From positions 1 to 41,297 of the IMG/VR virus record IMGVR_UViG_2897346870_000001: a DNA stretch of 41,297 nt. One strand, 5' to 3'. The translations under genes were made by a program, and so were the position numbers. Below, piece by piece: positions 10,682-32,815 of this stretch. This stretch comes from a virus. Its lineage: Duplodnaviria > Heunggongvirae > Uroviricota > Caudoviricetes. Below the pieces are notes generated by a model that did not search any database, had not been told where the DNA came from, and was given only the letters and a program-made list of their open reading frames with translations. Within the stretch, counting starts at the first letter, position 1; each line of letters starts with the position of its first letter.

Positions 10682-11022
10682 TGGACTATTCACAGTTAAG
10701 TGATTTTGAAATTAACAGAATGGTAGGAGACATAATTTTTAAAGGCCTTTGGGCATGTAAACCGGAAACATCAGGGAATAACACCAACAAATGGTATTAC
10801 GGAAATACTGATACAACTTTTGAGCCATTAAACCCTTTACCTGACTACTGCAATGATCCGAGCGCCTCATGGCCGATTATTGAGAAACACAGGATTTCTA
10901 TCTTAGACCAGTTAACTGAATGGTGTGTGGATGCAAAAGACGTAAGACCAATATTTGATACCAGACCTCTCCGAGCCGCCATGATTGTATTTCTCATGAT
11001 GCAGGAAAATCAGAATGGCTAA
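10678..11022 (+). CDS. Hypothetical phage protein
   Basis: About 114 aa ([16 protein letters not shown]...); ATG overlaps the previous stop; GGAGG Shine-Dalgarno. Confidence 0.45.
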
Positions 11023-11353
11023 ATCAGCAGCAGAGCGCAAAGCCGCTCAGAGAGCCAGACAAGCTGCATCTGGTGTGCGTAAGCTGGAAATTGTGCTTGA
11101 TGCTCAGGAAATTGAAATGCTGGAGCGTAACTGTGCCACGCGTCGCCCCGGGCGTGCGCCTTACGAATTTGGTGAGTATATAGCGTTACTGATCCGCCAA
11201 GATGATGCACGCGTGCACGGGCGTATAAAATCGATCAGCAGAAAACGTTGCGGTAAGTGCGGCGAGAGAGTTCCAGTTAATTCATGTCCGTGTAATGGTG
11301 ACTCACAATGCTGGGTGACTAAAGGCTGGCATGAAACGAAATTAATAGTGTGA
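11015..11353 (+). CDS. Zinc-ribbon protein, candidate late-gene regulator
   Basis: 112 aa; C-terminal [17 protein letters not shown] cysteine cluster; last gene before a promoter-plus-terminator arrangement upstream of the terminase; stop codon lies inside the GTGACATGTCAC palindrome. Confidence 0.4.
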
Positions 11354-11361
11354 CATGTCAC
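11350..11361. promoter_or_regulatory. 12-bp perfect palindrome GTGACATGTCAC (copy 1 of 3)
   Basis: Identical copies at 13615..13626 and 32779..32790, each next to a terminator hairpin. Confidence 0.5.
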
Positions 11362-11402
11362 GAGTAGATTATGCATGATGAATTTGATGGGTTTTGAATA
11401 CT

Positions 11403-11428
11403 GCCGCCAACTATGGCGGCTTTATTTT
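11403..11428 (+). terminator. tR'-like terminator upstream of the late genes
   Basis: GCCGCCA-ACTA-TGGCGGC hairpin followed by TTTATTTT, about 45 nt upstream of the small terminase start. Confidence 0.55.
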
Positions 11429-11471
11429 GCATGGTACTATTACCACAACGGTAACTATTACCACGGTGGTT

Positions 11472-12068
11472 ATGATGCCTGCTGAACCTAAAACCTATAA
11501 ACGCAAATCAACGCAATTTAAGCCACTAACAGCAATGCAGGAGGCTTATTGCCAGTCATACATCAAAACGCCTGAAAACCAGACTCAGGCAGCGATTAAC
11601 GCAGGATTCTCCCCAAATACAGCGGCAGTTAAAGCCAGTGTCATGATGCGCGATGAACGCATTCAAAAACGGATTGCCGAGTTGATGGAGGAGCGCAACA
11701 AACGAATGCGCGTCAGTGCTGATTACGTTCTCATGCGCCTGGTGGAGATCGACCAGATGGACGTGATCGACATCCTCAACGACGATGGGAGCCTTAAACC
11801 AATCCGTGAGTGGCCGAAAATCTGGCGCACTACGCTTAGCGGCTTTGATCTGTCATCGACCATCATGAACATGAACGAGGATTCGATAGAGACAATCCTC
11901 AAAAAAATTAAATGGCCTGACAAGGTGAAGAACCTTGAGCTGATTGGTAAGCATGTTGATGTCAACGCGTTCAAAGAACGCCTGGATGTTAATGTGAATG
12001 TGACAATTGCTGATCGCATAGCGGCAGCCAGGAAGAGACTGAAAGAACGTCAGGATGGCAATCAGTGA
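11472..12068 (+). CDS. Terminase small subunit
   Basis: Terminase_2-type pattern LTAMQEAYCQSYIKTPENQTQAAINAGFSPNTA...IQKRIAEL. Start placed at the internal ATG (MMPAEPK) after the terminator rather than the track start 11394. Confidence 0.75.
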   Translation: MMPAEPKTYKRKSTQFKPLTAMQEAYCQSYIKTPENQTQAAINAGFSPNTAAVKASVMMRDERIQKRIAELMEERNKRMRVSADYVLMRLVEIDQMDVIDILNDDGSLKPIREWPKIWRTTLSGFDLSSTIMNMNEDSIETILKKIKWPDKVKNLELIGKHVDVNAFKERLDVNVNVTIADRIAAARKRLKERQDGNQ

Positions 12069-13540
12069 CAGATACAGCGTTATCTCCTGAAGAGCAGTTG
12101 ATCGAGGATATTGCAGGGTTCACTCACGATCCGCTTGGCTATGCCCTCTATGCGTTCCCGTGGGGGGAAGAAGGGACTGAACTGGCACATGCTACCGGCC
12201 CACGTCAGTGGCAGGCTGATGCGTTCCGAGAGATACGTGATCACCTGCAGAATCCAGCGACGCGCTATCAGCCGCTTATGCTGGCACGCGCTTCTGGTCA
12301 CGGTATTGGTAAATCCGCATTCATCTCAATGCTGATCAACTGGGGCATGTCCACTTGCGAGGATTGTAAGGTCGTGGTGACCGCCAACACCGACAACCAG
12401 CTACGAACGAAGACCTGGCCGGAAATTATCAAGTGGTCGAACCTTGCTATCACGAAAGACTGGTTTACCTGTACCGCTACCGCGATGTACAGCAATGATC
12501 CTGGGCACGACAAGCGGTGGCGAGCTGACGCAATCCCCTGGTCTGAGCACAACACTGAGGCATTCGCCGGACTACACAACGAGCGCAAACGCATCATCGT
12601 GGTATTCGATGAAGCGTCGAACATTGCGGATCTGGTGTGGGAAGTTGCTGAGGGTGCGCTTACGGACGAAGACACTGAGATTATCTGGGTGGCGTTCGGA
12701 AACCCTACACGTAACACCGGGCGTTTCCGCGAATGTTTCCGCAAATATAAACACCGCTGGAAAACTGCGCAGATTGACAGCCGGACGGTGGAAGGCACTA
12801 ACAAACAGCAGTTGCAGAAATGGGTTGATGACTACGGGGAAGACAGCGACTTCGTTAAAATCCGTGTGCGCGGCATATTCCCGGATGCATCTGAATTGCA
12901 GTTTATCCCTACCGGACTTACTGACGAGGCAATGAAACGGGTGGTCACCGCTGCGCAGGTTGCACATGCTCCGGTGATAATCGGCGTTGACCCGGCATAC
13001 TCAGGCGTTGATGACGCTGTGATATACCTGCGGCAGGGGCTGCACAGTAAGGTGCTGTGGACTGGCAACAAGACCACTGACGATCTGATTATGGCGAAGC
13101 GTATCGCTGACTTTGAAGACCGGTACCAGGCTGACGCAGTGTTCATCGACTTCGGTTACGGAACTGGTCTGAAGTCAATCGGTGACGGCTGGGGTCGTAC
13201 ATGGCAACTTGTTCCGTTCGGTGGCGCGTCTACTGACCCGCAGATGCTCAACAAGCGTGGGGAGATGTTCAACTCATGTAAGACATGGCTGAGGCTGGGC
13301 GGCATGCTTGATGACCAGGAAACAGCGGACGACCTGTCGGCGGCAGAGTACAAAGTTCGCGTGGACGGTAAAATCGTTATCGAACCGAAGGAAGATATCA
13401 AGGAGCGGCTTGGGCGTTCTCCTGGTAAAGGCGATGCGCTATTGCTGACGTTTGCTTTCCCTGTGTCGAAGCGTCTGCGAATTCCAGGTCAGCAGAACCA
13501 GCAAGGCAAGGCCATTACAGATTACGATCCCTATGCTTAA
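12065..13540 (+). CDS. Terminase large subunit
   Basis: 491 aa; Walker A-like ARASGHGIGKS and C-terminal nuclease region; ATGA overlap with the small subunit. Confidence 0.85.
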   Translation: MTDTALSPEEQLIEDIAGFTHDPLGYALYAFPWGEEGTELAHATGPRQWQADAFREIRDHLQNPATRYQPLMLARASGHGIGKSAFISMLINWGMSTCEDCKVVVTANTDNQLRTKTWPEIIKWSNLAITKDWFTCTATAMYSNDPGHDKRWRADAIPWSEHNTEAFAGLHNERKRIIVVFDEASNIADLVWEVAEGALTDEDTEIIWVAFGNPTRNTGRFRECFRKYKHRWKTAQIDSRTVEGTNKQQLQKWVDDYGEDSDFVKIRVRGIFPDASELQFIPTGLTDEAMKRVVTAAQVAHAPVIIGVDPAYSGVDDAVIYLRQGLHSKVLWTGNKTTDDLIMAKRIADFEDRYQADAVFIDFGYGTGLKSIGDGWGRTWQLVPFGGASTDPQMLNKRGEMFNSCKTWLRLGGMLDDQETADDLSAAEYKVRVDGKIVIEPKEDIKERLGRSPGKGDALLLTFAFPVSKRLRIPGQQNQQGKAITDYDPYA

Positions 13541-13590
13541 TCCGCTGGTGGGGATAATGTCGTTGATATCCTCTGGTGAGGATAAAACAA

Positions 13591-13626
13591 AGCCAGCTCA
13601 TAGGCTGGCTGTTTGTGACATGTCAC
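13591..13626 (+). terminator. Hairpin after the terminase, immediately followed by GTGACATGTCAC copy 2
   Basis: AGCCAGC-TCATAG-GCTGGCT hairpin 13591..13610, then GTTT and the 12-bp palindrome at 13615..13626. Confidence 0.4.
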
Positions 13627-13630
13627 GGTG

Positions 13631-14137
13631 TTATTGAATTACAATCCAGTCATCAGATAGCAGATCGGTTTGAGATGCCAGCCACGGTACAAAGCAACCG
13701 TCAGCAGTTTTCATCCCAATCCACGGTAGAAGTTTAACGCCAGGTACAAATGTATACTCGTCACCGCATGTAACGTCAAATCGCCAATCGTTCGGAGTGG
13801 CCGATTGCGGTGGCTTAACCAGTTGCAGATACATGCCTTTGCCATTCCATCCGGCACGTGCAATGCGCTTACCATCTTTGAGTGATGACAAAGCAGTGGA
13901 GAAAGATACTGTTGATATTTCAGAACGTTGTGCTGTTATCCAGTCATGGAACGTAACGCTAGTACCATGGTCTTCGCTAAGAGTTAACCCGGCCAGTCCC
14001 TCACTCTGAATTACTTCGTAATGCATTTCATTACCAGCAAAAACGCCATAAAAAACGCAGTCTTCAGCCTGAACGATACGAGAATATTTTAATGGCCATT
14101 CATTTAGATACTTAGCCAACATATCAATTGTTTTCAT
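13631..14137 (-). CDS. DUF2829-domain protein (Tad2-like candidate anti-defence protein) with unknown N-terminal extension
   Basis: C-terminal half carries the DUF2829 hallmarks ARAGWNGKGMYL and WLASQTDLLSDDWIV; leftward gene in an accessory cassette with a tRNA between the terminase and portal. Confidence 0.6.
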   Translation of the reverse strand: MKTIDMLAKYLNEWPLKYSRIVQAEDCVFYGVFAGNEMHYEVIQSEGLAGLTLSEDHGTSVTFHDWITAQRSEISTVSFSTALSSLKDGKRIARAGWNGKGMYLQLVKPPQSATPNDWRFDVTCGDEYTFVPGVKLLPWIGMKTADGCFVPWLASQTDLLSDDWIVIQ

Positions 14138-14335
14138 GATCTCACCTTAAAAAAATGCCCGGCGACCCGGGCGAACTGGAAGCAATGAGTTATGCCTTCC
14201 GTGGCTGTACTGGTTTACAGCATGAAGTCATCGCAATGGCGTCCTGCTGTAAAAAGGGCGGTGATAGTCCTTCAAGGGAAACCATCACCGCCAAGCACCT
14301 GGAACTTCTGGCATCACGGTCCTTAGGCGTGATTC

Positions 14336-14412
14336 TGGCGTGGCATGCAGGATTCGAACCTGCGACCAACCGCTTAGAAGGCGGTTGCTCTGTCCAACTT
14401 AGCTAATGCCAC
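14336..14412 (-). tRNA. tRNA-Arg (anticodon UCU)
   Basis: 77-nt minus-strand cloverleaf: 7-bp acceptor stem GTGGCAT/ATGCCAC, anticodon stem ACCGC/GCGGT with loop CTTCTAA (UCU), T-arm GCAGG-TTCGAAT-CCTGC, discriminator G plus encoded CCA; close to E. coli argU in the 3' half. Confidence 0.85.
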
Positions 14413-14734
14413 AACGCTGAGAGCACTTAGCCTGTTAAGGTGCCACACTTTGTCGCGGCTCCATAAATGCTCTCATCGTTGTACCCTCGTCTCTTCCGAG
14501 GCGTCACACCGAATCGCCGGGATGGTGAATCCCCGTGCGCGGAATAAAACCGCTCGACTTGCACATTCCGGCTACCTGGTTCGTTTGCCCGAGCAAGGGA
14601 GGGTGCCCCTTAAACGTATCCAGACCGCTATCGGCGCATGTGCCATACGCCGTACTGCTCAAAATAAAAGCTCACTCCACCTGTTCAATTTAACGACAAG
14701 CCAGTCAGGTTAATAACCGGAATGAACCATTTGC

Positions 14735-14749
14735 TTACCTGAAAGGTAA
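14735..14749. promoter_or_regulatory. Operator-like palindrome TTACCTGAAAGGTAA upstream of the structural operon
   Basis: Perfect-arm copy of the dispersed motif; CATATGTGGTT at 14791..14801. Confidence 0.4.
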
Positions 14750-14839
14750 TAATTCGTGCGTTAAATGTCAACTATCTACGATAAATAAATCATATGTGGT
14801 TAAATTGGTAATAATTTAATTGCGTACGGAGTCATTGAT

Positions 14840-15046
14840 ATGTGCATGGGTAGCTCACCATCAGTGCCTGCAACACCAGAAGTTCAGGCAGCACCACAGG
14901 AGCAGGATGCCGCCGTTGTTGATGCCCGCGACGAAGAAACACGTCGCCGTCGCGCTGCTGCTGGTCGTAGTTCTACGCTGCTTACCGGTTCTCAGGGCGA
15001 CACATCAACCGCTAATACCAGCGGTAAAACGCTGCTTGGTCAGTAA
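14840..15046 (+). CDS. Small virion-associated protein candidate (Met-Cys N-terminus, T7 gp6.7-like composition)
   Basis: 68 aa, MCMGSSPSVPATPE..., acidic centre then basic stretch; GGAG Shine-Dalgarno; position just before the portal. Confidence 0.4.
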   Translation: MCMGSSPSVPATPEVQAAPQEQDAAVVDARDEETRRRRAAAGRSSTLLTGSQGDTSTANTSGKTLLGQ

Positions 15047-15060
15047 CCGGAGTCATTGAA

Positions 15061-16740
15061 ATGGCGGAAACAACTAAAGAGCGATTGAACAAACAGTTCG
15101 CACAACTTGAAAGCGAGCGTCAGTCGTTCGAGCCGCACTGGCGCGAGTTGAGTGATTACATCAACCCGCGTGGTTCCCGCTTTCTGACTTCTGAGGTTAA
15201 CCGTAACGATCGACGCAATACACGCATTATTGATTCGACCGGGACTATGGCGGCGCGCACTCTTGCCAGCGGCATGATGTCAGGCATAACAAGCCCCGCC
15301 CGTCCGTGGTTTCGCCTGGCTACGCCAGATCCTGAAATGATGGACTATGGCCCTGTTAAGTTGTGGCTTGAGGCGGTGCAGAACCGCATGAACGATATGT
15401 TCAATAAGTCGAATCTCTATCAGTCGCTGCCGCAGTTATACGGAAGCCTCGGCACATACAGCACTGGTGCAATGGCAGTGCTGGAGGATGACGAGGACAT
15501 CATTCGCACAATGCCATTCCCGATAGGCAGTTACTACCTGGCTAACTCACCTCGTGGCAGTGTGGACACCTGTTTTCGCAAGTTCTCTATGACTGTTCGT
15601 CAGCTTGTTCAGGAGTTCGGGCTAAATAACGTCAGCGAATTCGTAAAAAGCATGTGGGAAAGCGGAACCTACGAGAAGTGGATTGAAGTGATGCATTCGG
15701 TTTACCCGAACATTGACCGCGATACATCGAAGCTGGATAGCAAGAACAAGCCATTCAAATCGGTTTATTACGAGGTTGGTGGCGATAACGACAAGTTGTT
15801 GCGTGAGTCCGGATTCGATGAGTTTCCAATTATGGCTCCGCGCTGGGAAGTTAACGGCGAAGATGTTTATGGATCATCATGCCCGGGTATGCTGGCGCTT
15901 GGACCTGTTAAGGCATTGCAGCTTCTCCAGAAGCGCAAGTCGCAGTTGATTGATAAAGCCACCAATCCGCCGATGGTTGCTCCGACTTCCCTCAAGAATC
16001 AGCGTGCCTCCCTTCTTCCTGGCGACATCACGTATATCGATCAGATTACTGGTCAGGATGGTTTCAGGCCTGCTTATCTGGTTAACCCCAGTACAGCAGA
16101 TTTGGTGGCAGACATTCAGGACACTCGTCAAATCATTAACAGCGCCTACTTTGTCGATCTGTTCATGATGTTGCAGAACATCAATACCCGCTCGATGCCT
16201 GTTGAAGCGGTGATCGAAATGAAAGAAGAAAAACTTCTGATGTTGGGGCCGGTTCTGGAGCGTCTGAACGACGAATGTCTTAATCCTCTCATTGACCGCT
16301 CTTTCTCGATGATGGTGCGTAAAAACATGCTGCCGCCACCGCCAGACGTGATGGAAGGTATGCCCCTGAAGGTCGAATACATTTCCGTCATGGCTCAGGC
16401 GCAGAAGTCTATCGGCCTGTCCAGTCTGGCGTCCACGGTTAACTTCATTGGTCAACTTGCGCAAGCGAAACCAGAAGCTCTCGACAAACTCAACGTTGAT
16501 CAGGCGATCGATGCATTCGCTGATATGTCTGGAGTGTCTCCAACCGTCATTGTTCCGCAGGAACAGGTTGAGCAGGCTCGCCAGCAACGGGCACAGCAAC
16601 AACAGCAGCAACAAATGATGGCGATGGGGATAGCGGCGGCACAGGGTGCCAAGACGCTAAGCGAAGCTAAAACTTCGGATCCGAGTGTTTTGTCAGCTAT
16701 GGCGAATGCAGTTAGTGGTCAGGGTGGGCAATCACAATGA
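15061..16740 (+). CDS. Portal (head-to-tail connector) protein
   Basis: 559 aa; position after terminase and before scaffold/capsid; Gln-rich C-terminal tail (QQQQQQQMMAMGIAAAQGA) of the kind seen in T7 gp8-type portals. Confidence 0.7.
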   Translation: MAETTKERLNKQFAQLESERQSFEPHWRELSDYINPRGSRFLTSEVNRNDRRNTRIIDSTGTMAARTLASGMMSGITSPARPWFRLATPDPEMMDYGPVKLWLEAVQNRMNDMFNKSNLYQSLPQLYGSLGTYSTGAMAVLEDDEDIIRTMPFPIGSYYLANSPRGSVDTCFRKFSMTVRQLVQEFGLNNVSEFVKSMWESGTYEKWIEVMHSVYPNIDRDTSKLDSKNKPFKSVYYEVGGDNDKLLRESGFDEFPIMAPRWEVNGEDVYGSSCPGMLALGPVKALQLLQKRKSQLIDKATNPPMVAPTSLKNQRASLLPGDITYIDQITGQDGFRPAYLVNPSTADLVADIQDTRQIINSAYFVDLFMMLQNINTRSMPVEAVIEMKEEKLLMLGPVLERLNDECLNPLIDRSFSMMVRKNMLPPPPDVMEGMPLKVEYISVMAQAQKSIGLSSLASTVNFIGQLAQAKPEALDKLNVDQAIDAFADMSGVSPTVIVPQEQVEQARQQRAQQQQQQQMMAMGIAAAQGAKTLSEAKTSDPSVLSAMANAVSGQGGQSQ

Positions 16741-17033
16741 CAGATTACGAAGACGATCAACTGAAAGAAGAAAACGCCCGTAAGCAACGTGACATGGCAC
16801 AGCGTGAAATTGATGACATTCGCTTTGTCATGAGCAGTGAACAGGGGCGTCGCGTTGTCTGGTCTGTGCTGGAGAAAGGCCGGGTGTTTTCCGCTATCTC
16901 TCCGATGGATGCTATGGCAATGGCATTTAATGAGGGGCAACGCAATCTGGCGCTGGGACTGTTTCAGCGCGTTATGGCGCATTGCCCTGAACAGTATTTG
17001 AAGATGGCCAAAGAGGCCAGTGAACAGGAGTGA
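16737..17033 (+). CDS. Hypothetical head-module protein
   Basis: 98 aa, translationally coupled to the portal stop. Confidence 0.4.
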   Translation: MTDYEDDQLKEENARKQRDMAQREIDDIRFVMSSEQGRRVVWSVLEKGRVFSAISPMDAMAMAFNEGQRNLALGLFQRVMAHCPEQYLKMAKEASEQE

Positions 17034-17035
17034 TC

Positions 17036-17731
17036 ATGAATTTATTTGAGCGTTTGCTGTATCGCCGTCTTTGCAATGAGCAGCCAGCCGATGGCGGGGC
17101 AGCTCCGGCTGCGTCAGAACCGTCAGCGCATGCAGGTGATAACCCTGCTCCAGTTGGTGATCCATCACAACAGGAAGGTGATAAGCCACAACCTGTTGCT
17201 GATGGCGATAAACCTGCTGATGACAAAAAGCATGAAAACGATAAGCAGGGTGAAAAAAAGGACGGCGATAAACCAGAGGGTGCGCCTGAGAAGTACGAGT
17301 TTCAGGCTGCCGAAGGCGTAGAGCTGGATACAGAAGCGTTGAAGGAATTCGAGCCGGTGGCGCGAGAACTAAACCTGACCAACGAGCAAGCGCAAAAGCT
17401 GGTTGATGCTTATCCGAAGATTCTGGCAGGTGTGCAGCAGCGCCAGGCAGAAGCCTGGCAGAAAACAACCGAGCAGTGGGCTGCTGATGTAAAAGCTGAC
17501 AAAGAAATTGGTGGCGACAAGTTGATTTCTAACCTTAGCGCCGCACAGCGTGCGCTTGACCAGTTCGGGACACCAGAGCTCAAAGAATATCTGAACACCA
17601 CCGGACTGGGTAATCACCCTGATCTGGTCAAAACGTTCGTGAAAATCGGAAAGGCGATGTCTGAAGATGGCATGGTCACCGGTGGTAATGAAGGCCAGCG
17701 TAGTGCGGCCGAAGTGCTCTATGGCAAATAA
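17036..17731 (+). CDS. Scaffolding protein
   Basis: Acidic, low-complexity, helix-rich protein located between portal and major capsid genes; AGGAG Shine-Dalgarno before the ATG at 17036. Confidence 0.55.
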   Translation: MNLFERLLYRRLCNEQPADGGAAPAASEPSAHAGDNPAPVGDPSQQEGDKPQPVADGDKPADDKKHENDKQGEKKDGDKPEGAPEKYEFQAAEGVELDTEALKEFEPVARELNLTNEQAQKLVDAYPKILAGVQQRQAEAWQKTTEQWAADVKADKEIGGDKLISNLSAAQRALDQFGTPELKEYLNTTGLGNHPDLVKTFVKIGKAMSEDGMVTGGNEGQRSAAEVLYGK

Positions 17732-17745
17732 GAGAGGAAATGACA

Positions 17746-18732
17746 ATGGCTGTTAAAGGCTTAACTGCGCTGACGCTGGCTGACTGGGGTAAGCGCGTCG
17801 ATCCAAACGGGAAAGTCGATAAGATTATCGAGCTTCTCGGTCAAACTAACCCGATCCTTCAGGATATGCCTTTTGTCGAAGGGAACCTTCCTACCGGACA
17901 CCGAACCACCATTCGTTCTGGTTTACCTTCAGCTACCTGGCGTTTGCTGAACTATGGCGTACAGCCAAGCAAATCAACCACAGTGCAGGTAACCGATTCC
18001 GTGGGCATGCTGGAAACCTATGCTGAAGTCGATAAGTCACTGGCTGATCTGAACGGCAATACCGCCGAATTCCGCCTGTCTGAAGACCGCGCATTTATTG
18101 AAGCGATGAATCAGCAGATGGCGCAGACGCTGTTTTATGGTGATTCCAGCGTTAACCCTCAGCAGTTTATGGGACTGTCCTCCCGCTATTCCAGCCTGTC
18201 TGCGGGTAATGCTCAGAACATCATTGATGCTGGTGGCACGGGTACAGATAACACCTCAATCTGGTTAGTAGTGTGGGGCGAAAACACCGTGCATGGCATC
18301 TTCCCGAAAGGGCAGAAGGCTGGCATCCAGATGGAAGATAAAGGCCAGGTGACACTGGAAGATGCGAATGGCGGCAAGTACGAAGGCTACCGTACCCATT
18401 ACAAATGGGACAACGGACTTGCTCTGCGTGACTGGCGTTATGTTGTTCGCATTGCAAACATCGATGTCAGCAATCTTTCAGAACCTTCCTCTGCCGCAAA
18501 TATTGCGAAGTTGATGGTTAAAGCACTGCATCGCATTCCAAACCGTGGCATGGGCCGCCCGGTGTTCTACATGAACCGCACTGTAGGCCAGGCTCTTGAT
18601 CTGCAGTCTCTGGAGAAAACATCTCTGGCTATCAGCGTAAAAGAGACTGAAGGCGAGTGGTGGACTTCATTCCGTGGTGTACCAATCCGTGAAACTGATG
18701 CGCTTCTGGAAACAGAAGCCCGCGTGGTGTAA
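17746..18732 (+). CDS. Major capsid protein
   Basis: About 329 aa, immediately after the scaffold; GAGG Shine-Dalgarno; followed by small head genes and a strong terminator. Confidence 0.65.
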   Translation: MAVKGLTALTLADWGKRVDPNGKVDKIIELLGQTNPILQDMPFVEGNLPTGHRTTIRSGLPSATWRLLNYGVQPSKSTTVQVTDSVGMLETYAEVDKSLADLNGNTAEFRLSEDRAFIEAMNQQMAQTLFYGDSSVNPQQFMGLSSRYSSLSAGNAQNIIDAGGTGTDNTSIWLVVWGENTVHGIFPKGQKAGIQMEDKGQVTLEDANGGKYEGYRTHYKWDNGLALRDWRYVVRIANIDVSNLSEPSSAANIAKLMVKALHRIPNRGMGRPVFYMNRTVGQALDLQSLEKTSLAISVKETEGEWWTSFRGVPIRETDALLETEARVV

Positions 18733-18783
18733 CGCCTGTTATTAACCTGTGGGTCGTAACAGACCCACTAATGGAGAAAGAAG

Positions 18784-19221
18784 ATGATCACCGACAAACT
18801 GTTGATGTTCTCCGAAGCACAGGCGGTAACTGATACCGCGGCTTCTACTGACGTAATCGATCTCGGTCCAATTGACGGAAAACGTCGTGATATCGGCGTG
18901 GGTTACCCGCTTGAATTTTGGGCGCTGGTTAACACAGCCGCCGCGGCAAGCGGTGATGCAACTGTAAACATCCAGTTGCAAACGAGTGAGAATAACAGCT
19001 CTTGGACCACTATTTATGATAGTGGTGCGTTGGCAAAGGCCACCCTGACAGCAGGTAAGCGAGTTGTTTCTGCAAAGGTGCCAGCCGGTGTTCAGCGATA
19101 TCTGCGTGTTAACTACTCCGTCGCAACTGGCCCACTAACGGCTGGCAAATTCACTGCGGGTATCAGTCTGGATGTTGATGCCAATACGCCGTACCCGATC
19201 CGCTCAAAAGTAACTGGTTAA
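18784..19221 (+). CDS. Putative capsid decoration/cement protein
   Basis: 145 aa, directly downstream of the capsid gene; beta-rich composition; assignment positional. Confidence 0.35.
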   Translation: MITDKLLMFSEAQAVTDTAASTDVIDLGPIDGKRRDIGVGYPLEFWALVNTAAAASGDATVNIQLQTSENNSSWTTIYDSGALAKATLTAGKRVVSAKVPAGVQRYLRVNYSVATGPLTAGKFTAGISLDVDANTPYPIRSKVTG

Positions 19222-19222
19222 G

Positions 19223-19567
19223 GTGATATCGATGTCAGGTGAGAAACCAAGATACCGCGTTCTGCGCCTCTCTCATATCCATAACACACTGTGGCCGGAG
19301 GGGGCAGAAATCGAATACGAAGGTGAGCCTGGTAGCGCACTGGAACCTGTTAACGATGCAGCCAGACAGGCAAAAGCAAAGGTAGCAGGAAAGGTGTCTA
19401 TGGCAGCAACCAGCACCAAAATCATCAACGATGTGTCAGATGATGGTGAACTGGATAAGCTCCGTGAAGAGTACGAATTGCTCTTTAACGAGAAGCCACA
19501 CCATAACGCCAAAGCCGAAACGCTCCGCGAGAAGATCGCAGATAAGCGTAAAGAACTGGGCGTGTAA
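19223..19567 (+). CDS. Hypothetical head-module protein
   Basis: 114-aa ORF ending just before the terminator. Confidence 0.4.
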   Translation: MISMSGEKPRYRVLRLSHIHNTLWPEGAEIEYEGEPGSALEPVNDAARQAKAKVAGKVSMAATSTKIINDVSDDGELDKLREEYELLFNEKPHHNAKAETLREKIADKRKELGV

Positions 19568-19584
19568 GCCTCGCGAATCCGACA

Positions 19585-19605
19585 AGGGGCTTCGGCCCCT
19601 TTATT
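19585..19605 (+). terminator. Rho-independent terminator after the head genes
   Basis: AGGGGC-TTCG-GCCCCT hairpin followed by TTATT. Confidence 0.6.
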
Positions 19606-19617
19606 GCAGGAGTGTAT

Positions 19618-19941
19618 ATGGAACTCGTAAACCTCAAAACCGGCACTGACAGCTACCAGGATGAGAGCGGAGAAACCAGAACTCGCGATGAATACCCGTG
19701 GGGGCTGTGCATCACTCTTAATAACGACACATTGAATAAGCTGAAGGCGCAACCTCAGGGCGTCGGAACAGAAGTGATGATAACTGCAAAGGCTGTTATT
19801 CGAGGCCTGTCTGCCAGAGAAACTGACGATGGTGTTAATCGCAGCGCCGATCTGCAGATCACTGATATGGCGATCGCTCCTGTTTCCGGGGATGTAGAAA
19901 AATCAGCGGCTGAAACTCTGTACGGCAATGGGGGTGAGTAA
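19618..19941 (+). CDS. Hypothetical virion protein
   Basis: 107 aa from the ATG at 19618 with AGGAG Shine-Dalgarno; first gene of the tail operon. Confidence 0.4.
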   Translation: MELVNLKTGTDSYQDESGETRTRDEYPWGLCITLNNDTLNKLKAQPQGVGTEVMITAKAVIRGLSARETDDGVNRSADLQITDMAIAPVSGDVEKSAAETLYGNGGE

Positions 19942-26641: not shown

Positions 26642-26642
26642 C

Positions 26643-28340
26643 ATGCCAATTTACACAGATGATCCGGGACAGGGCATTAACCAGCCAATTGGCAACGCGC
26701 CAGCAGGGCTTGGCGAATCGCTGCTTTCTTCCCTTAAGCAGGGATTTGAAGAGGGGCCGGTCATGTCCGGCTACCGCTTTGCGCAGGTCGACTCGCTGGC
26801 GAATGACCCAAACTCTACAGTTATCAGTAAGCAGGACGCAGATGAGCTCCTGAAGCAGTACGGCGTAAAGAGCATAAACGTGCCAGATTCTGGCGTTACG
26901 CAGGCTTTTCTCGATCATGTTATTGCCGAACGCAAAGATTCTCTGGCACGCCAGCAGATTGCGATGTCGGCACCGAGCGGGTGGGTAGCCACGCCGCTTA
27001 ATTTCGCAGCCAGCCTAGCTGGTTCAATGGCAGATCCTGGTAACGTGGCGCTGGCGCTGGTTCCGTTCGCTGGAGAAGCAAAGGCAGCTTCTGTGCTTGG
27101 CCGATTTGGCGAGCGATTTGTTGCGGGTGCACGCATGGGGGCAGCGCAGGCGGTGGTGACCGTGCCGCTTACCGGGCTGGCAGCGGCGGCGGAAGGTGAC
27201 GACTTCACCTATAGCAACGCGTTGGAAAGTACTTTCTTTAACACGATGGCTGGCGGTCTAATGCATGCCGGCGGCGGCCTTATCGCCGATATCGTGCGAC
27301 CGCGTCGCGTTCCCGATGCTGCAACGGGAGAGTCCCCGGCGTTTTCTGGCGATGCGCAGCCAACCCCGGTGATAACGCCTGACAACATTCCGGCGGGCGT
27401 GAATATCCCTGAGGTTGGCGCTAACGCAGATCTGGCGGCGGCCATTTCCAATGAAGCGGAGAGCTACGCATACAGCCGGGCTTATGACGACGTGGTTCCT
27501 GACTATATGGCGCGCCAGCAGGAGTTACAGAGCGGACAGATCGGTAACGTTGCCGACCTGCGTGCCGAGCTTGCGGCTAATCAACGTCATGCTGACTCGC
27601 TTGATGCGACGCTGCAGCAGCGCACCAAAAAGTATCAGGGGCAGCGGATGAAGTTTAAGGATGCGCGCTCTAGGGCACTGAAAGAGATTCAGGCCGAGAA
27701 AGACGCCATCGCTGCACGCAATCAGGAGATCAACACATCGCTGGAGCAGAACGCGACAGCAGAGCAGGCGCGCTGGCGCCAGTCTCAGATTTCCCGCGGC
27801 GAGATCCCCGACGACCTGAAAGTCACCATTTCCGAGCGTGCGCAGCAGATCCTGGACGGCATGCAGATGTCGCCGGTCGCTGGCGCAGTTCGCACTGCCG
27901 CAAGCGCCATCAGGGATGCTGACTGGAGCGTGAACCAGCAGGCGTATCGCGCTGCGCTGGCACACATGATGGAAGGACGTAGCCCAGATGTTGAGCCCTT
28001 CTATGAACTGCACAAATCGGCACTGCGCGAACGCGCCATCCATCGCATACAGAACCCGGCACGGCAGGTTGATGAAACGGCTCGCCCAGCAAGCGAAACA
28101 GCCGATCGGGTTTATCAAGAAACGCAAAAGGCAGATCATGAAATTACCGCTGCCGCTGCAGACCTTGATAACGAGCTCAACCTGAGTAACGCCCTGCTTG
28201 ACGATATCGCTGTCGATAACCCTGATCTTGCGACCACGTTGCGCCAGAAACTCAATGATATTCGTGCCGACGCCAGCGACAATAGCATGAGCAACGCTTT
28301 CCGGGCATTTGCCGCCTGTATGATTAACCGGGGGATGTGA
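26643..28340 (+). CDS. Internal virion (ejection) protein
   Basis: 565 aa, Ala-rich, within the run of large late genes. Confidence 0.5.
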   Translation: MPIYTDDPGQGINQPIGNAPAGLGESLLSSLKQGFEEGPVMSGYRFAQVDSLANDPNSTVISKQDADELLKQYGVKSINVPDSGVTQAFLDHVIAERKDSLARQQIAMSAPSGWVATPLNFAASLAGSMADPGNVALALVPFAGEAKAASVLGRFGERFVAGARMGAAQAVVTVPLTGLAAAAEGDDFTYSNALESTFFNTMAGGLMHAGGGLIADIVRPRRVPDAATGESPAFSGDAQPTPVITPDNIPAGVNIPEVGANADLAAAISNEAESYAYSRAYDDVVPDYMARQQELQSGQIGNVADLRAELAANQRHADSLDATLQQRTKKYQGQRMKFKDARSRALKEIQAEKDAIAARNQEINTSLEQNATAEQARWRQSQISRGEIPDDLKVTISERAQQILDGMQMSPVAGAVRTAASAIRDADWSVNQQAYRAALAHMMEGRSPDVEPFYELHKSALRERAIHRIQNPARQVDETARPASETADRVYQETQKADHEITAAAADLDNELNLSNALLDDIAVDNPDLATTLRQKLNDIRADASDNSMSNAFRAFAACMINRGM

Positions 28341-30889
28341 TGGCAGCAAACGAATTTTTGACGCAGTGCGAGCGCAGTGTAAATGCTGCCGCTGGTCGCG
28401 AGCTTTCTTCCGATGAGATGGAGTCGCTGGTGCGTGACATGAACGACACCACTAGGCGAATTCTGGCGACCAATGAGGCGCTGTCTCTGGAAGAGGCCGC
28501 GATGCGCGCAGCGGAAGAACTGAGCAATGCCGATATGCTGGCAAAACAGATTGAGTCTCGCAATAAGGCAATCAACACCCGTATTGCCGCACAACGACTT
28601 AGAGAGCTTCGTACTATCTGGAAAGACCGCCCGGATATCGGGCTTGAAGCAATGCTGGTTGGCCGTAACGATGCGCGTACCGGCGCCCGCCGGTCGGTAT
28701 CTTCGGAGGTGGCGCAACTGCGCGGCAAGTATCATTCCGGTATCAACTACGATTTTGACCGTGCCGGGCTGGTGCAATTCATCGCCAGCGGCAGCAATGA
28801 CAGGGAAATTGCCGATGCAATGTGGCGCATAGGGCGCGGGCAGTCAACTGACGGTATGACAAAGCAATCCGTAAGCGCTGCACAAATCATCATGAAATGG
28901 CAGGAAACTGCGCGCATTGATGAGAACCGTGCCGGGGCATGGATACGCAAAGAGCCGGGCTATATAGTGCGCCAGTCACACGACATCATGAAGATCCGCG
29001 CCGCAGGTTATGAAGCATGGCGAAATGCTATTCTCCCGCGCCTTGATGAGCGCACTTTTGACGGCGTGGCTGACCGCGAGCAGTTCATGCGTAACATTTA
29101 TAACGGGCTGGCTTCCGGCGTGCATCTTACATCTGAAAAGCCCGATTGGATGAATGGCTTTAAGGGATCGGCGAACGCAGCTAAACGCGCCAGCCAAGAG
29201 CGAATTTTGCACTTCAAAGATGGTATCTCGTGGCACGAGTACAACCAGCAATTCGGCACCGGCAGCCTGCGAGAGGCGCTGTTTGGTGGCTTAAACAGCG
29301 CTGCCCGCACAACGGGCATGATGCGCGTATTGGGCACTAACCCACAGAACATGTTTAAGTACCTGACGGACACCATTGCTGAAGATATCAGCAAATCCGG
29401 AAGACCGGCAGCGTTGGCTGACTACATGACGAAGGTGCGTCGCATTAACCGTACCGTAATGCCGCAGGTTGACGGCTCGCTAAATATTCCTGGCAGCGTA
29501 GGCTGGGCCAATGCGTCGGCGGCTGTACGCGGCTGGTTGCGTATGAGCCAGCTTGGTGGCGCGGTAATCTCATCGTTTAACGACGTGCCTATCGCCGCTA
29601 CCGAGATGCGCTACCAAGGGCAGAATTTTATGCAGGCGTTGCTTGGTGCTATGAGAGGCCGCTTCACGCGTTACAACAGCGCGGAGCAGAAAGAGATCCT
29701 TTCCTCTATCGGAGTTTATTCCGACTCCATGACGCAGGAAATCATCCGGCGCATATCTGGTGATGACACGCTGAATGGAAAACTTGGTCGCGCGCAGCAG
29801 CTTTTCTTTAAGTACAACCTCATGAACTTCTGGACCGAGAGCGGTCGCAACAGTAACGCCATGATGATAACCAACTGGCTTGCAAAGAATGCTGACCAGC
29901 CTCATGCGCGGCTACCGGAAGACCTGCGACGCGTGCTGGATCTGCACGGTATTGGCGAACGTGAGTGGGAAATTTTTCGCAACATGGACATGGCCGATAG
30001 CGAAGGTCGTAAGTTCATGACGACCAGCGGCATCCGCGGCGTGCCTGACGAAGTGATTGCCGGTTATGTAGAGAGTAAGGGGATCAAGCCAACGCAGCGC
30101 GCTATCGCTGACGCACGCGATCAATTGGAAGGGCAGTTGCGCGGCTACATCCTTGACCGCCTGAATATCGCCATGTCAGAGCCTGGCGATCGCACGCAGG
30201 CGTTTATGAAGATGGGCACGGTGCCAGGAACGGTGGCTGGGGAAGCAATACGATTCGCTGGTCAGTACAAATCGTTCACTGCAAGCTTCATGCAGAACGT
30301 ACTAGGACGCGAAGTATTCGGGCGTGGTTATATTCCTGCTGGGCTTGGTGAGTCGAAAACCGGATCGCTGACGAATGCGCTGCTGCGTAACGGGAAGGGG
30401 GCTTTCCTTGGTGCTGCAAACCTCTTTGTCTGGGCGACTATGTTTGGTTATATCTCCATGCAGTCAAAACTCATGCTGAAAGGGCAAACACCGCGCCCGG
30501 CAGATGCCAAGACGTTTCTCGCAGCCGCATCTCAGGGGGGCGGTCTTGGCATCTTGGGTGACTTCATGTTTGGCGAGGTCAACCGCATGGGGGCCGGGCC
30601 GGTTACGTCGCTAATGGGGCCGGCAGCATCGAACGCTGACAGCATTATCACGCTGCTCCAGCAGACCACGAGAGGGGATGCAGATTTGGGTGACTGGTAT
30701 CGCACGGCACTTGACAATACGCCATTCCTCAACGTGTTCTGGCTTCGTACGGCGATGAATGGTTTAATATTGAACCGGATACAAGATGCCCTTGACCCTG
30801 GCTCTCTTGAGCGTTATCAGCGCCGTGTTGAGCGTGAGCAGGGTAACGAATTTCTGATTCCACCATCGCAGTTCATGCTAGGGAAGTAA
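28337..30889 (+). CDS. Large internal virion (ejection) protein
   Basis: 850 aa, last of three large core proteins before the tail fibre region. Confidence 0.5.
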   Translation: MMAANEFLTQCERSVNAAAGRELSSDEMESLVRDMNDTTRRILATNEALSLEEAAMRAAEELSNADMLAKQIESRNKAINTRIAAQRLRELRTIWKDRPDIGLEAMLVGRNDARTGARRSVSSEVAQLRGKYHSGINYDFDRAGLVQFIASGSNDREIADAMWRIGRGQSTDGMTKQSVSAAQIIMKWQETARIDENRAGAWIRKEPGYIVRQSHDIMKIRAAGYEAWRNAILPRLDERTFDGVADREQFMRNIYNGLASGVHLTSEKPDWMNGFKGSANAAKRASQERILHFKDGISWHEYNQQFGTGSLREALFGGLNSAARTTGMMRVLGTNPQNMFKYLTDTIAEDISKSGRPAALADYMTKVRRINRTVMPQVDGSLNIPGSVGWANASAAVRGWLRMSQLGGAVISSFNDVPIAATEMRYQGQNFMQALLGAMRGRFTRYNSAEQKEILSSIGVYSDSMTQEIIRRISGDDTLNGKLGRAQQLFFKYNLMNFWTESGRNSNAMMITNWLAKNADQPHARLPEDLRRVLDLHGIGEREWEIFRNMDMADSEGRKFMTTSGIRGVPDEVIAGYVESKGIKPTQRAIADARDQLEGQLRGYILDRLNIAMSEPGDRTQAFMKMGTVPGTVAGEAIRFAGQYKSFTASFMQNVLGREVFGRGYIPAGLGESKTGSLTNALLRNGKGAFLGAANLFVWATMFGYISMQSKLMLKGQTPRPADAKTFLAAASQGGGLGILGDFMFGEVNRMGAGPVTSLMGPAASNADSIITLLQQTTRGDADLGDWYRTALDNTPFLNVFWLRTAMNGLILNRIQDALDPGSLERYQRRVEREQGNEFLIPPSQFMLGK

Positions 30890-30890
30890 T

Positions 30891-31262
30891 ATGAACAGAA
30901 TTATATTAATGATTATTCTTATGCTTTTAGTTGTAAAATCTTTTGCAGATACTACCTCACCGTTAATGATTCAGCCTAAAAATGGGGAAACACTGGAGGA
31001 TTCTAAAAAGCATACAATGGAATATTTTGGATGTATAAAAGGGCAGGCCGTAAAATACGCTAAGACAGGAGAAAGTGTTGATTCTATATCCAAAGCTTCG
31101 GTTGTGTCATGCGAGTCGTACATACAAAAGATTGCTGAATCAAATATATACTATTTAAATTCCTCTCAAGACGGTAAGCGGAAATTTATTGGAAGGCTTA
31201 AATCAGATGGTGAAAGTTTAGCAACGAAATTTGCTATGGATGAAAAGCTAAAAAATAAATAG
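30891..31262 (+). CDS. AT-rich moron: secreted protein with signal peptide
   Basis: 123 aa; N-terminal MNRIILMIILMLLVVKSFA signal peptide, two Cys; GC content visibly much lower than neighbouring genes; start 1 nt after the preceding stop. Confidence 0.55.
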   Translation: MNRIILMIILMLLVVKSFADTTSPLMIQPKNGETLEDSKKHTMEYFGCIKGQAVKYAKTGESVDSISKASVVSCESYIQKIAESNIYYLNSSQDGKRKFIGRLKSDGESLATKFAMDEKLKNK

Positions 31263-31372
31263 GTGACTACATGCAAGCGATAGGATTCATTGGGCTGATG
31301 GTTTGCAGCTAACCTGCAAGTTTGCGAAGTGCCAAACAAATAATCTCACGGCGCTGTTCATCCCCAGGAAGC

Positions 31373-31395
31373 TGCATTGTGATTTTCACAATGCA
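31373..31395 (+). terminator. Perfect 10-bp hairpin TGCATTGTGA-TTT-TCACAATGCA
   Basis: Downstream of the moron gene; followed by GGTTTTAAA; possible end of the late transcript. Confidence 0.35.
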
Positions 31396-31412
31396 GGTTT
31401 TAAACCACTGCT

Positions 31413-31619
31413 TCATTTTCGTAAAGCCATACAAATCATGGCTTGCACCCCACCGGCAGAAGGTATGGTGATTTCCACCATACCCTTCGAGAAGCGTTGA
31501 GAAATCTTCTTATGTTGAGATTTCCAGTCTAGACCCATTCCCTCAACGATAGGTTTCATTGGGGTGTACGGTTCGCCGTTGTGATTGACAACATAAAGTT
31601 CTGCGCCGTGGAATGGCAC
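31413..31619 (-). pseudogene. Possible truncated antirepressor/Rha-like N-terminal fragment
   Basis: 68-aa GTG-initiated ORF (VVNHNGEPYTPMKPIVEGMGLDWKSQHKKI) resembling N-terminal DNA-binding domains of Rha/Ant proteins, with no Shine-Dalgarno and no C-terminal domain. Confidence 0.2.
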
Positions 31620-31766
31620 GTTGATAGTAGTGACAAATTTGAAACATCGCTGGTTGTAAGCCAGCAGATGCTCGTTATTTTACGTCGCGGCACAATTTCT
31701 CGCTGCTGGCTCTTTTACACGCATTAACCAAATATGGTTGATTTTAATATCCACCTGTGCCTATTA

Positions 31767-31846
31767 TTACCTTTGCGGTAAATTTACATCGCACTCCTCT
31801 TGTGCCATAGTAATCGGGCACTGGCAAAATCCAGTGCCGGGATTGG
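31767..31846. repeat. Inverted repeat IR-A, left copy (antirepressor promoter/leader)
   Basis: About 80 bp, near-identical in reverse complement to 34928..35007; includes operator TTACCTTTGCGGTAA (31767..31781) and the palindromic hairpin GCACTGG-CAAAAT-CCAGTGC. Confidence 0.8.
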
Positions 31847-32048
31847 TCTCCCGGATTACTACAGAGGCACATATGCCGCATAAGCGGTTTTTTTATGTGT
31901 AAAGCGCACCTATTCTATGGTGGGCTGTGTGGGGGCACCGAAAGGTGCGCCGGGTTCCTTTGTAGCCGGTAAGACCAACTCTGCACAGTTCACCACCATC
32001 TGATTGGTCTCAGCGGTGGTGATTAACCTAACTACAAAGGTGATCGCC

Positions 32049-32741
32049 ATGAATACCAAACCTTCCATCTTTTCCTTTGAGTCATCCTGCCAGATCCGTA
32101 TGTTCATGATTGACGGAGAACCTTGGTTTGTCACCAAAGATGTGTGCAATGCTTTGAATATTGATGTTACACAAGCGAGAAAACTTGATAAAAAAGGCTG
32201 GAACAAAAAGGGGCTGTATTCAATACAGACCCCTGGTGGAATACAAGAACTATCCATCGTTTCAGAATCAGGTCTCTACATCCTTATTCTGCGTTGCAAA
32301 GAGGCAATGACTGAGGGAACGAGAGCATTCAGATTTCTTGAATGGGTTACAGGTGAGGTTCTTCCTCAGATCCGCCGCACCGGAAGCTACATTAAAAACT
32401 CGCTCCCGCAGGAAGAGCGCATAAAGATGGTTGCCGACCAGGTAGCCAACGCCACGGCGTCAGCAGTAATGCAGGCGATGAAGATAGAGAACAAAACCTA
32501 CAGTGCCCCACTGAAGCCCGGCTACCGCAGCCTGATTCATTCGCCGTCTGGTGTTCTCGGCCTGACGGAGAACTCACTGCTGATGAATCTGCTGAACCAG
32601 TTACAGGAAGACGGGCATGACGTATCGGGCGCGGCGGCGGAGTTGACCACCATGTTCTGCTACATCGTCGGTGTGAACAAATGCCTGCGTGATATCCAGA
32701 CGCACGCGGAGTACATCAACGACAAAGCAGGGTTCTTCTGA
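32049..32741 (+). CDS. Antirepressor, BRO-N N-terminal domain plus shared C-terminal domain (copy 1)
   Basis: N-terminus MNTKPSIFSFESSCQIRMFMIDGEPWFVTKDVCNALNI is a BRO-N-type fold; C-terminal 125 aa nearly identical to the gene at 34013..34723; AGGTGA Shine-Dalgarno. Confidence 0.7.
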   Translation: MNTKPSIFSFESSCQIRMFMIDGEPWFVTKDVCNALNIDVTQARKLDKKGWNKKGLYSIQTPGGIQELSIVSESGLYILILRCKEAMTEGTRAFRFLEWVTGEVLPQIRRTGSYIKNSLPQEERIKMVADQVANATASAVMQAMKIENKTYSAPLKPGYRSLIHSPSGVLGLTENSLLMNLLNQLQEDGHDVSGAAAELTTMFCYIVGVNKCLRDIQTHAEYINDKAGFF

Positions 32742-32743
32742 CG
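32341..32743. repeat. Inverted repeat IR-B, left copy (3' half of antirepressor 1)
   Basis: About 400 bp, near-identical in reverse complement to 34011..34413; produces mirrored 61-aa artefact ORFs in the track (32392..32577 and 34177..34362). Confidence 0.85.
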
Positions 32744-32778
32744 AGCGGCGGCACAGGGATGTGCAAAACGAAACTATC

Positions 32779-32815
32779 GTGACATGTCACAGGCCGCTTT
32801 CGCGGCCTTGTTTTT
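32779..32815 (+). terminator. GTGACATGTCAC copy 3 fused to a strong rho-independent terminator
   Basis: Palindrome 32779..32790 directly followed by AGGCCGC-TTTC-GCGGCCT plus TGTTTTT (32791..32815). Confidence 0.7.

Follow-up and report, generated by a model that had tools for sequence, protein, structure and literature searches.

The perfect palindrome GTGACATGTCAC occurs three times in the 41,297-nucleotide stretch of viral DNA analyzed here (IMG/VR record IMGVR_UViG_2897346870_000001, hereafter the window), and is very probably a protein-binding DNA site under selection. The window represents an E. coli prophage of the epsilon15/phiV10-like kind (Uetakevirus), and its annotation was carried over from phiV10, TL-2011b and epsilon15. 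The protein that binds the palindrome is probably the 112-amino-acid product of the gene that ends within the first copy, as judged from the co-occurrence of gene and site and from a modelled fold. For the system as a whole, we lean somewhat towards the explanation that the palindrome is the operator of this ribbon-helix-helix (RHH) and zinc-ribbon protein, which would act as a repressor-type roadblock or boundary factor.

An exact search finds the palindrome at three positions and nowhere else in the window:

11350..11361, site 1, GTGACATGTCAC, containing the TGA stop codon of the RHH/zinc-ribbon gene 11015..11353
13615..13626, site 2, GTGACATGTCAC, between the convergent genes for the large terminase (12065..13540, plus strand) and a Tad2-like moron (13631..14137, minus strand)
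32779..32790, site 3, GTGACATGTCAC, 37 nucleotides past the stop codon of the antirepressor gene 32004..32741 and abutting a terminator hairpin

No copy arose in 100 dinucleotide-preserving shuffles (three observed, none expected), which agrees with the initial annotation that three identical 12-mers are improbable by chance. When up to two mismatches are allowed, the single extra match is GTGACATGGCAC at 16789-16800, within chance expectation. This one-mismatch copy is inside the open reading frame (ORF) 16737..17033 and is also kept in phiV10 and TL-2011b, and may either act as a fourth, weak site or have no role. We know of no restriction or uptake sequence that matches the palindrome. Site 1 ends the early-right operon, just ahead of the small and large terminase genes, and is separated from site 2 by 2.3 kb. 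Site 2 is 4 nucleotides from a hairpin shared by the two convergent genes and 4 nucleotides from the stop codon of the minus-strand moron, and site 3 is at the convergent end of a leftward operon that finishes with 32814..33047 (minus strand).

The palindrome is retained in close relatives at places where the adjoining DNA is not. The Salmonella phage epsilon15, which has ~81% identity to the window in the terminase region, carries the exact 12-mer at the three equivalent places, with different flanks and even different neighbouring hairpin sequences, and phiV10 carries two exact copies and a one-mismatch variant of copy 1. Of the 80 close IMG/VR relatives listed, 75 have an intact copy 1, and 54 of the 62 cases that could be anchored for copy 2 have that copy intact. 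The architecture around copy 2 is kept in epsilon15, phiV10 and prophages of Citrobacter, Pseudocitrobacter, Superficieibacter, Erwinia and Klebsiella; its 4-nucleotide offsets to the hairpin and to the minus-strand stop codon are retained in five genera, and the hairpin sequence and the minus-strand gene vary. TL-2011b lacks copy 2, and the terminator and moron are replaced there. Equivalents of copy 3 are found in epsilon15 (position 19517), phiV10 (19493), TL-2011b (32282) and BUCT711 (18526), and their left flanks are unrelated.

The RefSeq record of phiV10 is linearized within copy 1, between ...GTGA and CATGTTAC..., and the element is thus split over the record ends. A genome end or cos site was considered as an explanation of the palindrome and rejected, since the phiV10 record is merely cut after the stop codon of its last gene, and the presence of three copies, along with in-gene copies elsewhere, excludes a packaging end.

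Homologues of the gene at 11015..11353 are present in unrelated phages, including podo-, myo- and siphoviruses and phage-plasmids. Genomes with a homologue hold about three sites each, whose consensus across the family is GTGAC-N2-GTCAC, and usually one of these sites is on or just past the homologue's stop codon. The phages compared, with the percent identity of their homologues and with their sites, are as follows:

ZF40 (Pectobacterium), a myovirus: homologue at 66%; three copies of TGTGACATGTCACA, one of them 3 nucleotides after the stop codon
N15 and phiKO2, telomere phages: homologues at ~35-37%; three copies each of GTGACTGGTCAC or its complement, located identically in the two phages, with one copy on the stop codon
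K303 (Vibrio), a siphovirus: homologue at 31%; three sites (GTGACRCGTCAC)
A Yersinia P2-like phage: homologue at 42%; GTGACGCGTCAC on the stop codon and an imperfect copy 21 bp downstream
BUCT711 (Klebsiella), a Uetakevirus: four sites
PY54, an N15-type phage without a homologue: no site at all, the stretch of repA that is homologous included
An Aeromonas phage: homologue at 30%; no exact site, and a degenerate ATGACATGGCAC on the stop codon only

In epsilon15, N15, phiKO2, the Yersinia P2-like phage and ZF40, either the TGA within GTGAC is the stop codon of the homologue or the site is 2-14 nucleotides past it. The same holds more widely. In all, 27 prophage loci from different species contain 35 sites where 0.48 are expected; about 20 of these are within 0-14 bp of the homologue's end, and the TGA of GTGAC usually serves as the stop codon. 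Two sets of homologue-bearing loci, of 1.44 and 0.51 Mb, hold 132 and 35 sites with the N2 spacing, as compared to ~1.4 and 0.5 expected. Any other spacing of the half-sites is found 0-5 times in the same ~2 Mb, which is the background level, and such spacings stay at background over ~3 Mb of prophage and flanking DNA as well.

The association is also detectable in the reverse direction. When IMG/VR stretches containing the 14-mer TGTGACATGTCACA were read over 2-15 kb each, an ORF of the family was found in 32 of the 120 listed, and these stretches include 26 additional N2 sites, where 1.1 would be expected. Thirty further sites fall within two genes of the ZF40 type, namely phrog_2479 and that of a cII-like activator. 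The 112-amino-acid protein, already proposed as a candidate binder in the initial annotation, is the only gene product found to co-occur with the motif across unrelated phages, and is our candidate because gene and sites occur together and because PY54, which is without the gene, is also without the sites. Its modelled RHH fold is suggestive of the same role. The Arc-like or antirepressor module was rejected as the source of the binder, as this module is absent from epsilon15 and phiV10, which retain the sites.

The sites themselves have the character of double-stranded DNA signals. All 10 half-site bases are conserved and the centre varies. The central dinucleotide is usually uniform within a genome (AT in Uetakevirus and ZF40, TG/CA in N15 and phiKO2), which suggests lineage-specific recognition. 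An element acting in RNA, such as a small hairpin or processing site just upstream of terminators, is a further alternative: in the window, all three copies would be transcribed directly upstream of a terminator hairpin, and RNA folding gives a mini-hairpin of 4-5 bp at copies 1 and 2. However, a 12-nucleotide palindrome can yield only such a 4-5 bp stem, which is absent from the best fold of copy 3, and covariation in a hairpin would look different from invariant half-sites around a variable centre. N15 and phiKO2 carry their sites in both orientations, so that the centre differs by strand and an RNA would read differently, and no Rfam family matches at the sites. We consider an RNA-level element very improbable, and the RNA processing site proposed in the initial annotation correspondingly unlikely for a strict DNA palindrome.

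The gene of the putative site-binding protein has the following features:

11015..11353, plus strand, 112 amino acids, a member of the epsilon15 gp49/phiV10 p55/N15 gp46 family (phrog_536)

The protein appears to consist of an N-terminal basic helix, an RHH domain and a C-terminal, cysteine-rich zinc ribbon. An AlphaFold2 model built from 57 family members is confident (pLDDT 92.6), and leads from a basic N-terminal helix through an extended segment to two helices, the cysteine-rich ribbon and a short final helix. In this model, the features of an RHH-type fold are present, namely a beta-strand followed by two helices, the unit that in RHH proteins pairs into a dimer through a two-stranded sheet. 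The most conserved residues are R8, K9, Q12, R13 and R15 of the N-terminal helix, and the cysteines are conserved too. Because the half-sites are invariant and the centre varies, we infer that the basic helices of the modelled protein might read GTGAC and that the ribbon might span the centre.

Curated models give little to compare with this fold. One or two of the 57 members touch RHH_5 or RHH_1, at E-values of 0.01-0.07, which falls short of membership. No Pfam family matches the 112-amino-acid protein, the NCBIfam match is to the LexA-regulated YbfE at an E-value of 0.05, and a Foldseek search of the model against the PDB returned nothing significant. Most RHH proteins are repressors, and the dimers that they form bind to short symmetric operators. 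The RHH repressors, such as P22 Arc, Mnt, CopG, MetJ and antitoxins of the ParD/MazE/TacA type, are the closest known kind and likewise have short symmetric operators, but the phage protein adds the conserved basic helix at its N terminus and the zinc ribbon at its C terminus. Also, each of its sites seems to be a lone 12-bp element and not part of a tandem array, and its operators are not at its own promoter: one coincides with the stop codon, and the rest are located within genes or at operon ends far away.

The half-sites of the palindrome are identical to those of E. coli matS, the 13-bp site whose consensus is GTGACRNYGTCAC, or GTGAC-RNY-GTCAC (PMC6907758). An architectural element similar to MatP and matS would have the phage protein bridge two to four sites, or recruit or exclude host organizing factors, and so loop phage DNA, or would have the palindromes be mimics of matS bound by the MatP of the host; any transcriptional effect would then be secondary. 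Several features resemble that system. In both the phage protein and MatP, an RHH core follows a basic helix, which on direct reading contains K-x3-R-A-R ahead of the RHH strand. As with matS, there are few, dispersed sites per genome, some of them in genes, and pairs of sites 2.2-2.7 kb apart are found in Uetakevirus, in ZF40 (flanking the cI-cro region) and in K303. Among the matches found, the family is limited to hosts such as Enterobacterales, Vibrio and Aeromonas, groups that generally have MatP.

The differences are nonetheless considerable. The phage spacer is one base shorter and is strictly N2 in all of the 167 or more sites, with N3 found 0-1 times. An hhalign comparison of the family alignment with E. 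coli MatP gives a probability of 0.5%, which is not significant, and homology to MatP was rejected on this result. In the model, the phage protein lacks the four-helix bundle and the C-terminal coiled coil of MatP, and has a zinc ribbon in place of the tetramerization tail. Moreover, the phage sites are linked to a gene of their own, and host MatP can account neither for this co-occurrence nor for the lack of sites in PY54. We regard the MatP-like alternative as unlikely. The only N3-spaced site among the phages examined is a 13-bp element of K303, GTGACACCGTCAC at 19491-19503, which fits the host matS consensus.

In the window, each copy of the palindrome is 0-41 nucleotides from a predicted terminator hairpin:

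11401..11430, plus strand, terminator t1, stem 11403-11420 and T-run, between site 1 and the start of the small terminase gene
13581..13610, minus strand, terminator hairpin, stem 13591-13610, shared by two convergent genes and 4 nucleotides before copy 2
32791..32818, plus strand, terminator t3, stem 32791-32808 followed by TGTTTTTAAC, starting at the base next to site 3

All three have a G+C-rich stem followed by a T-run, with RNA-fold z-scores of -2 to -3.2. The stem of t1 begins 39-41 nucleotides past copy 1 (41 and 39 nucleotides in two scans), and its counterpart in epsilon15 is annotated as a rho-independent terminator. The counterpart of the hairpin at 13591-13610 is annotated as a terminator in phiV10, and that of t3 in both phiV10 and epsilon15. 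The initial annotation that every copy hugs a terminator is thus borne out, with one correction: the hairpin beside copy 2 has the character of a terminator on the minus strand (TTGTTTTAT), and its T-run on the plus strand is weak (GTTTGTGA). Along the strongly terminated transcript, the order common to all three copies is stop codon, palindrome, hairpin and T-run.

The link to terminators and operon boundaries is valid for the Uetakevirus lineage, but does not extend to all phages with sites. Many lineages have a terminator of unrelated sequence 7-45 nucleotides after the site that follows the regulator gene, and in N15, Pantoea and others the next gene starts directly after this site. In ZF40, N15, phiKO2 and BUCT711, sites fall within genes or ahead of a promoter, and no terminator adjoins them. 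Some of these in-gene sites, in the ZF40-type gp08 and cII-like genes on either side of cI-cro and in repA of N15 and phiKO2, have kept their position though their flanks have diverged, and the only routes of action open to such sites are an effect on elongating polymerase and one on DNA architecture. Where sites are intergenic, they are at the ends of operons. In N15 and phiKO2, the final gene of the repA operon ends 53 nucleotides before the intergenic site, and the -35 element of the isrK/C4/antirepressor promoter is ~25 bp downstream of it, so that the site is placed where an insulator against read-through would be expected. In K303, one site shortly precedes the terminase gene, and another shortly precedes a second gene.

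A function as a promoter element was also considered and rejected. A -10-like hexamer is found 2-4 nucleotides past the site only at copy 1 of the window, in ZF40, in N15 and phiKO2 and in two Pantoea-type loci, and is not found in epsilon15, at most other loci or at copies 2 and 3. No promoter-like match was found at sites 2 and 3.

The location of the regulator gene is reminiscent of lambda Q. It is the last gene of the early-right operon and directly precedes the terminase genes, and the succession of regulator gene, DNA site, terminator 39-41 nucleotides farther on and late genes (terminase or lysis) mirrors that of Q, PR'-qut and tR'. In a Q-like role, the protein bound at the site would be handed to the passing RNA polymerase, which would then resist the following terminator, and the late genes from the terminase onward would be expressed only after the product of the last early gene had accumulated. 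In keeping with this, all three sites are upstream of a terminator in the strong-terminator direction, many other prophages show this order again downstream of the gene, and the annotations of phiV10 and epsilon15 include no Q-like protein. We found no good sigma-70 promoter, nor any promoter-like site, between t1 and the start of the terminase genes. The sole promoter-like match of this region overlaps site 1 (GTGACA-18-CATGAT, 9/12) and is weak.

Antitermination fits the other sites poorly, however. Phage sites are also found within genes, with no terminator nearby, and after terminators; for rightward, late transcription, site 2 follows its hairpin rather than preceding it. We read the promoter overlapping site 1 as not kept in relatives or in other contexts of the family. 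ZF40, N15 and phiKO2 encode Q-like proteins of their own besides this gene. The protein has no match in Pfam, NCBIfam or PDB sequences to Q families or other known antiterminators, and no antiterminator of the RHH type is known to us. The role of an antitermination or termination factor put forward in the initial annotation is not supported by the sites of ZF40, N15, phiKO2 and BUCT711 that lack an adjacent terminator, and we consider the Q-like alternative rather improbable.

The zinc-finger half of the protein has a borderline similarity to TraR and DksA that could also bear on polymerase. TraR/DksA zinc-finger proteins bind in the secondary channel of RNA polymerase, and phage-encoded examples exist. 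The top matches of the family profile among PDB sequences are TraR (E-value of 0.03) and YbiI (0.04), which share a helix followed by a C-x2-C-G-x2-(L/I)-P zinc finger, and hhalign gives probabilities of 46% and 63% for proteins of the TraR/DksA type. The phage protein, however, has no second C-x2-C pair, as only the first Cx2C is invariant, and scores below any curated threshold. The helix that TraR inserts into the channel corresponds to the second RHH helix of the phage protein. None of the 57 members matches the Pfam model PF01258 (TraR/DksA zinc finger), the similarity is lost when a profile of the C-terminal half alone is used, and a database search with TraR as query recovers only close TraR relatives. 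We regard homology to TraR/DksA as borderline and not robust.

The explanation that we favour, in which the protein is a repressor-type roadblock, takes the palindrome as the cognate operator, GTGAC-N2-GTCAC, of the protein encoded at 11015..11353, a symmetric dimer of which would be expected to bind there. Together, gene and site would constitute a portable cassette, with one operator in or just past the gene's own stop codon and about two further operators elsewhere in every phage that carries the gene. In the window, the three operators would mark the 3' ends of transcription blocks, just upstream of intrinsic terminators. The blocks ended in this way would be the early-right operon, the terminase operon with its convergent moron, and the structural/antirepressor block with its convergent operon. 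As the protein accumulates, we infer that it would occupy the sites, strengthen the terminators for transcription from either side and keep convergent or adjacent units insulated from each other. Less transcription would then continue beyond the protein's own gene, which would limit its mRNA in the manner of LacI at O3. The pair of protein and site might, in other phages, damp elongation inside early genes (ZF40 gp08, the cII-like gp12 and N15 repA), and at the antirepressor locus of N15 it might shield the downstream promoter.

A repressor-type roadblock or insulator with self-limitation is preferred on three grounds: RHH proteins are mainly repressors, a palindrome beside a bidirectional hairpin acts symmetrically on both directions of transcription, and LacI and O3 set a precedent in which an operator is at the end of the regulator's own gene. 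Abo and colleagues reportedly described in 2000 how LacI bound to O3, at the 3' end of lacI, forms a roadblock that truncates the lacI mRNA. In both cases, the operator overlaps the end of the coding sequence of the DNA-binding protein, and a block to polymerase allows self-limitation. The proteins are unrelated, however, and the lac arrangement is a by-product of the adjacent regulated promoter, whereas the phage arrangement, known here from sequence, is conserved across a whole family in many genomic contexts. Given that the protein binds, this comparative analysis makes roadblock or insulation a plausible mode of action, at somewhat less than even odds when antitermination, activation and looping are all counted against it.

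Several observations weigh against the roadblock explanation. A roadblock at site 1 would also reduce read-through into the terminase genes, and the lack of a sigma-70 promoter after t1 means that Q-like antitermination fits copy 1 at least as well. Positions no more than 45 nucleotides from a predicted terminator hairpin make up 4.4% of the window, a figure that exaggerates the surprise because the scarce intergenic DNA of phages gathers at operon ends; the adjacency to terminators may partly mirror where noncoding DNA is available. The likeness to TraR, a weak lead from sequence comparison, would favour direct action on polymerase over a passive block. The Aeromonas phage, with its 30% homologue and no exact site, establishes that the pairing is not universal at that distance. 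Among the 120 IMG/VR stretches listed, 88 have no gene of the family within their fragment of 2-15 kb, and some of the matches to the 14-mer must be due to chance. Finally, the assignment of protein to site is one made from co-occurrence and fold.

Recombination could provide a different reason for the palindromes, as hotspots or short shared homologies for the swapping of cassettes such as morons and antirepressor modules between phages, whether or not a specialized enzyme takes part. The left flank of site 3, which in the window is a c4/antirepressor module, has no relation to that of phiV10 and epsilon15 at any point before the palindrome. Among the 80 relatives listed, the sequence to the right of site 2 changes 0-10 bp past the palindrome, with many different minus-strand genes there, and the cassette of gene and site is itself found in several unrelated phage backbones. 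The initial annotation of a recombination hotspot is accurate in that junctions do fall at the palindrome, but they are explained at least as well as the consequence of a conserved island in variable DNA, since a conserved functional site in variable intergenic DNA coincides with mosaic junctions automatically. Moreover, no recombinase or nuclease co-occurs with the sites, the RHH/zinc-ribbon protein has no catalytic features, and the sites fixed inside essential or conserved genes (repA of N15 and phiKO2, and the ZF40-type gp08 and cII-like genes) are not cassette junctions. Recombination as the function of the palindrome thus seems quite unlikely, although the island may also serve as microhomology for module exchange.

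Other elements are present in the vicinity of the sites. Between t1 and the start of the small terminase gene, at 11440-11470, there is TTACCACAACGGTAAC with a second partial copy. These repeats match the ATTACC-N5-GGTAAT "repressor" sites that are annotated in epsilon15 before late gene blocks, and on this sequence match they suggest that the late blocks are directly under the control of the prophage repressor. The operator of a cI-type prophage repressor was accordingly rejected as an identity for the palindrome, as it has this different sequence. The longest ORF of the small terminase starts at 11394, as in phiV10, and would take in the operator-like repeats as well as t1. A more plausible start is the in-frame ATG ATG at 11472/11475, which corresponds to the starts used in TL-2011b and epsilon15. 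In prophages of Citrobacter, Pseudocitrobacter and Erwinia, a sequence resembling a LexA box, TACTGT-N8-ACAGTA, is located ~30-60 nucleotides past the site at the regulator's stop codon, so that a gene that appears from its sequence to be SOS-controlled directly follows the cassette of regulator and operator.

The moron next to site 2 (13631..14137, minus strand) encodes a Tad2-like (Thoeris anti-defence 2) domain (Pfam PF11195, E-value of 1e-23). Because many different genes occupy this slot in relatives, the position after the large terminase is one for anti-defence or moron cassettes. A tRNA gene (14339-14412, minus strand; Rfam tRNA, 69 bits) lies in the variable region past the terminase genes, and tRNA-Arg is annotated at the equivalent place in related phage records.

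Near site 3, an isrK-like RNA followed by a C4 antisense RNA is present in two copies, at 31818-32000 (plus strand) and 34772-34956 (minus strand), with matches to Rfam RF01394 and RF01695 well over the gathering scores. Each pair is just upstream of an antirepressor gene, 32004..32741 (plus strand) and 34013..34738 (minus strand), an arrangement that by sequence is the P1/N15-type control of antirepressors by c4 RNA. A small "Arc-like" ORF, 31738..31902, overlaps the isrK match and may be no gene. The two antirepressor modules form inverted repeats, 32239-32742/34012-34515 (504 nucleotides, 89%) and 31757-31861/34913-35017 (105 nucleotides, 91%). They flank a 1.27-kb segment containing copy 3 of the palindrome, its terminator and three small leftward genes, which homologous recombination could invert.

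An RHH regulator with a palindromic operator is a known kind of system. In the searchable literature, we found no paper on variants of the motif, on the function of the family or on a phage system similar to MatP and matS. The family, the combination of RHH and zinc ribbon, the operator embedded in a stop codon, the matS-type half-sites and the spread over podo-, myo- and siphoviruses and phage-plasmids appear to be undescribed. A more far-reaching possibility, which we hold to be rather doubtful, is that the protein acts on polymerase through a TraR-like module, or bridges sites as MatP does, and sets programmable transcription boundaries, through insulation or antitermination, around terminase, immunity, replication and antirepressor modules; jointly with such an action, the candidate pair may be an unrecognized protein-operator system that moves horizontally among temperate phages of Enterobacterales and Vibrio.

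The analysis defines a testable pair of regulator and operator, made up of a 112-amino-acid protein and a site of 12 bp that occurs three to four times per genome. The pair bears on the control of late genes and boundaries in phages of the epsilon15/phiV10 type, which are used for O157 typing and as reporters, and on N15, a model phage-plasmid whose gene 46 belongs to the family. The near-identity of the half-sites to matS raises the question of cross-talk with the organization of the host chromosome. Whether as an insulator, a roadblock or a polymerase-directed factor, the protein would, if the proposed pairing is true, be a new compact module for defining the ends of transcription units, and the clustering of mosaic junctions at the sites would be explained.

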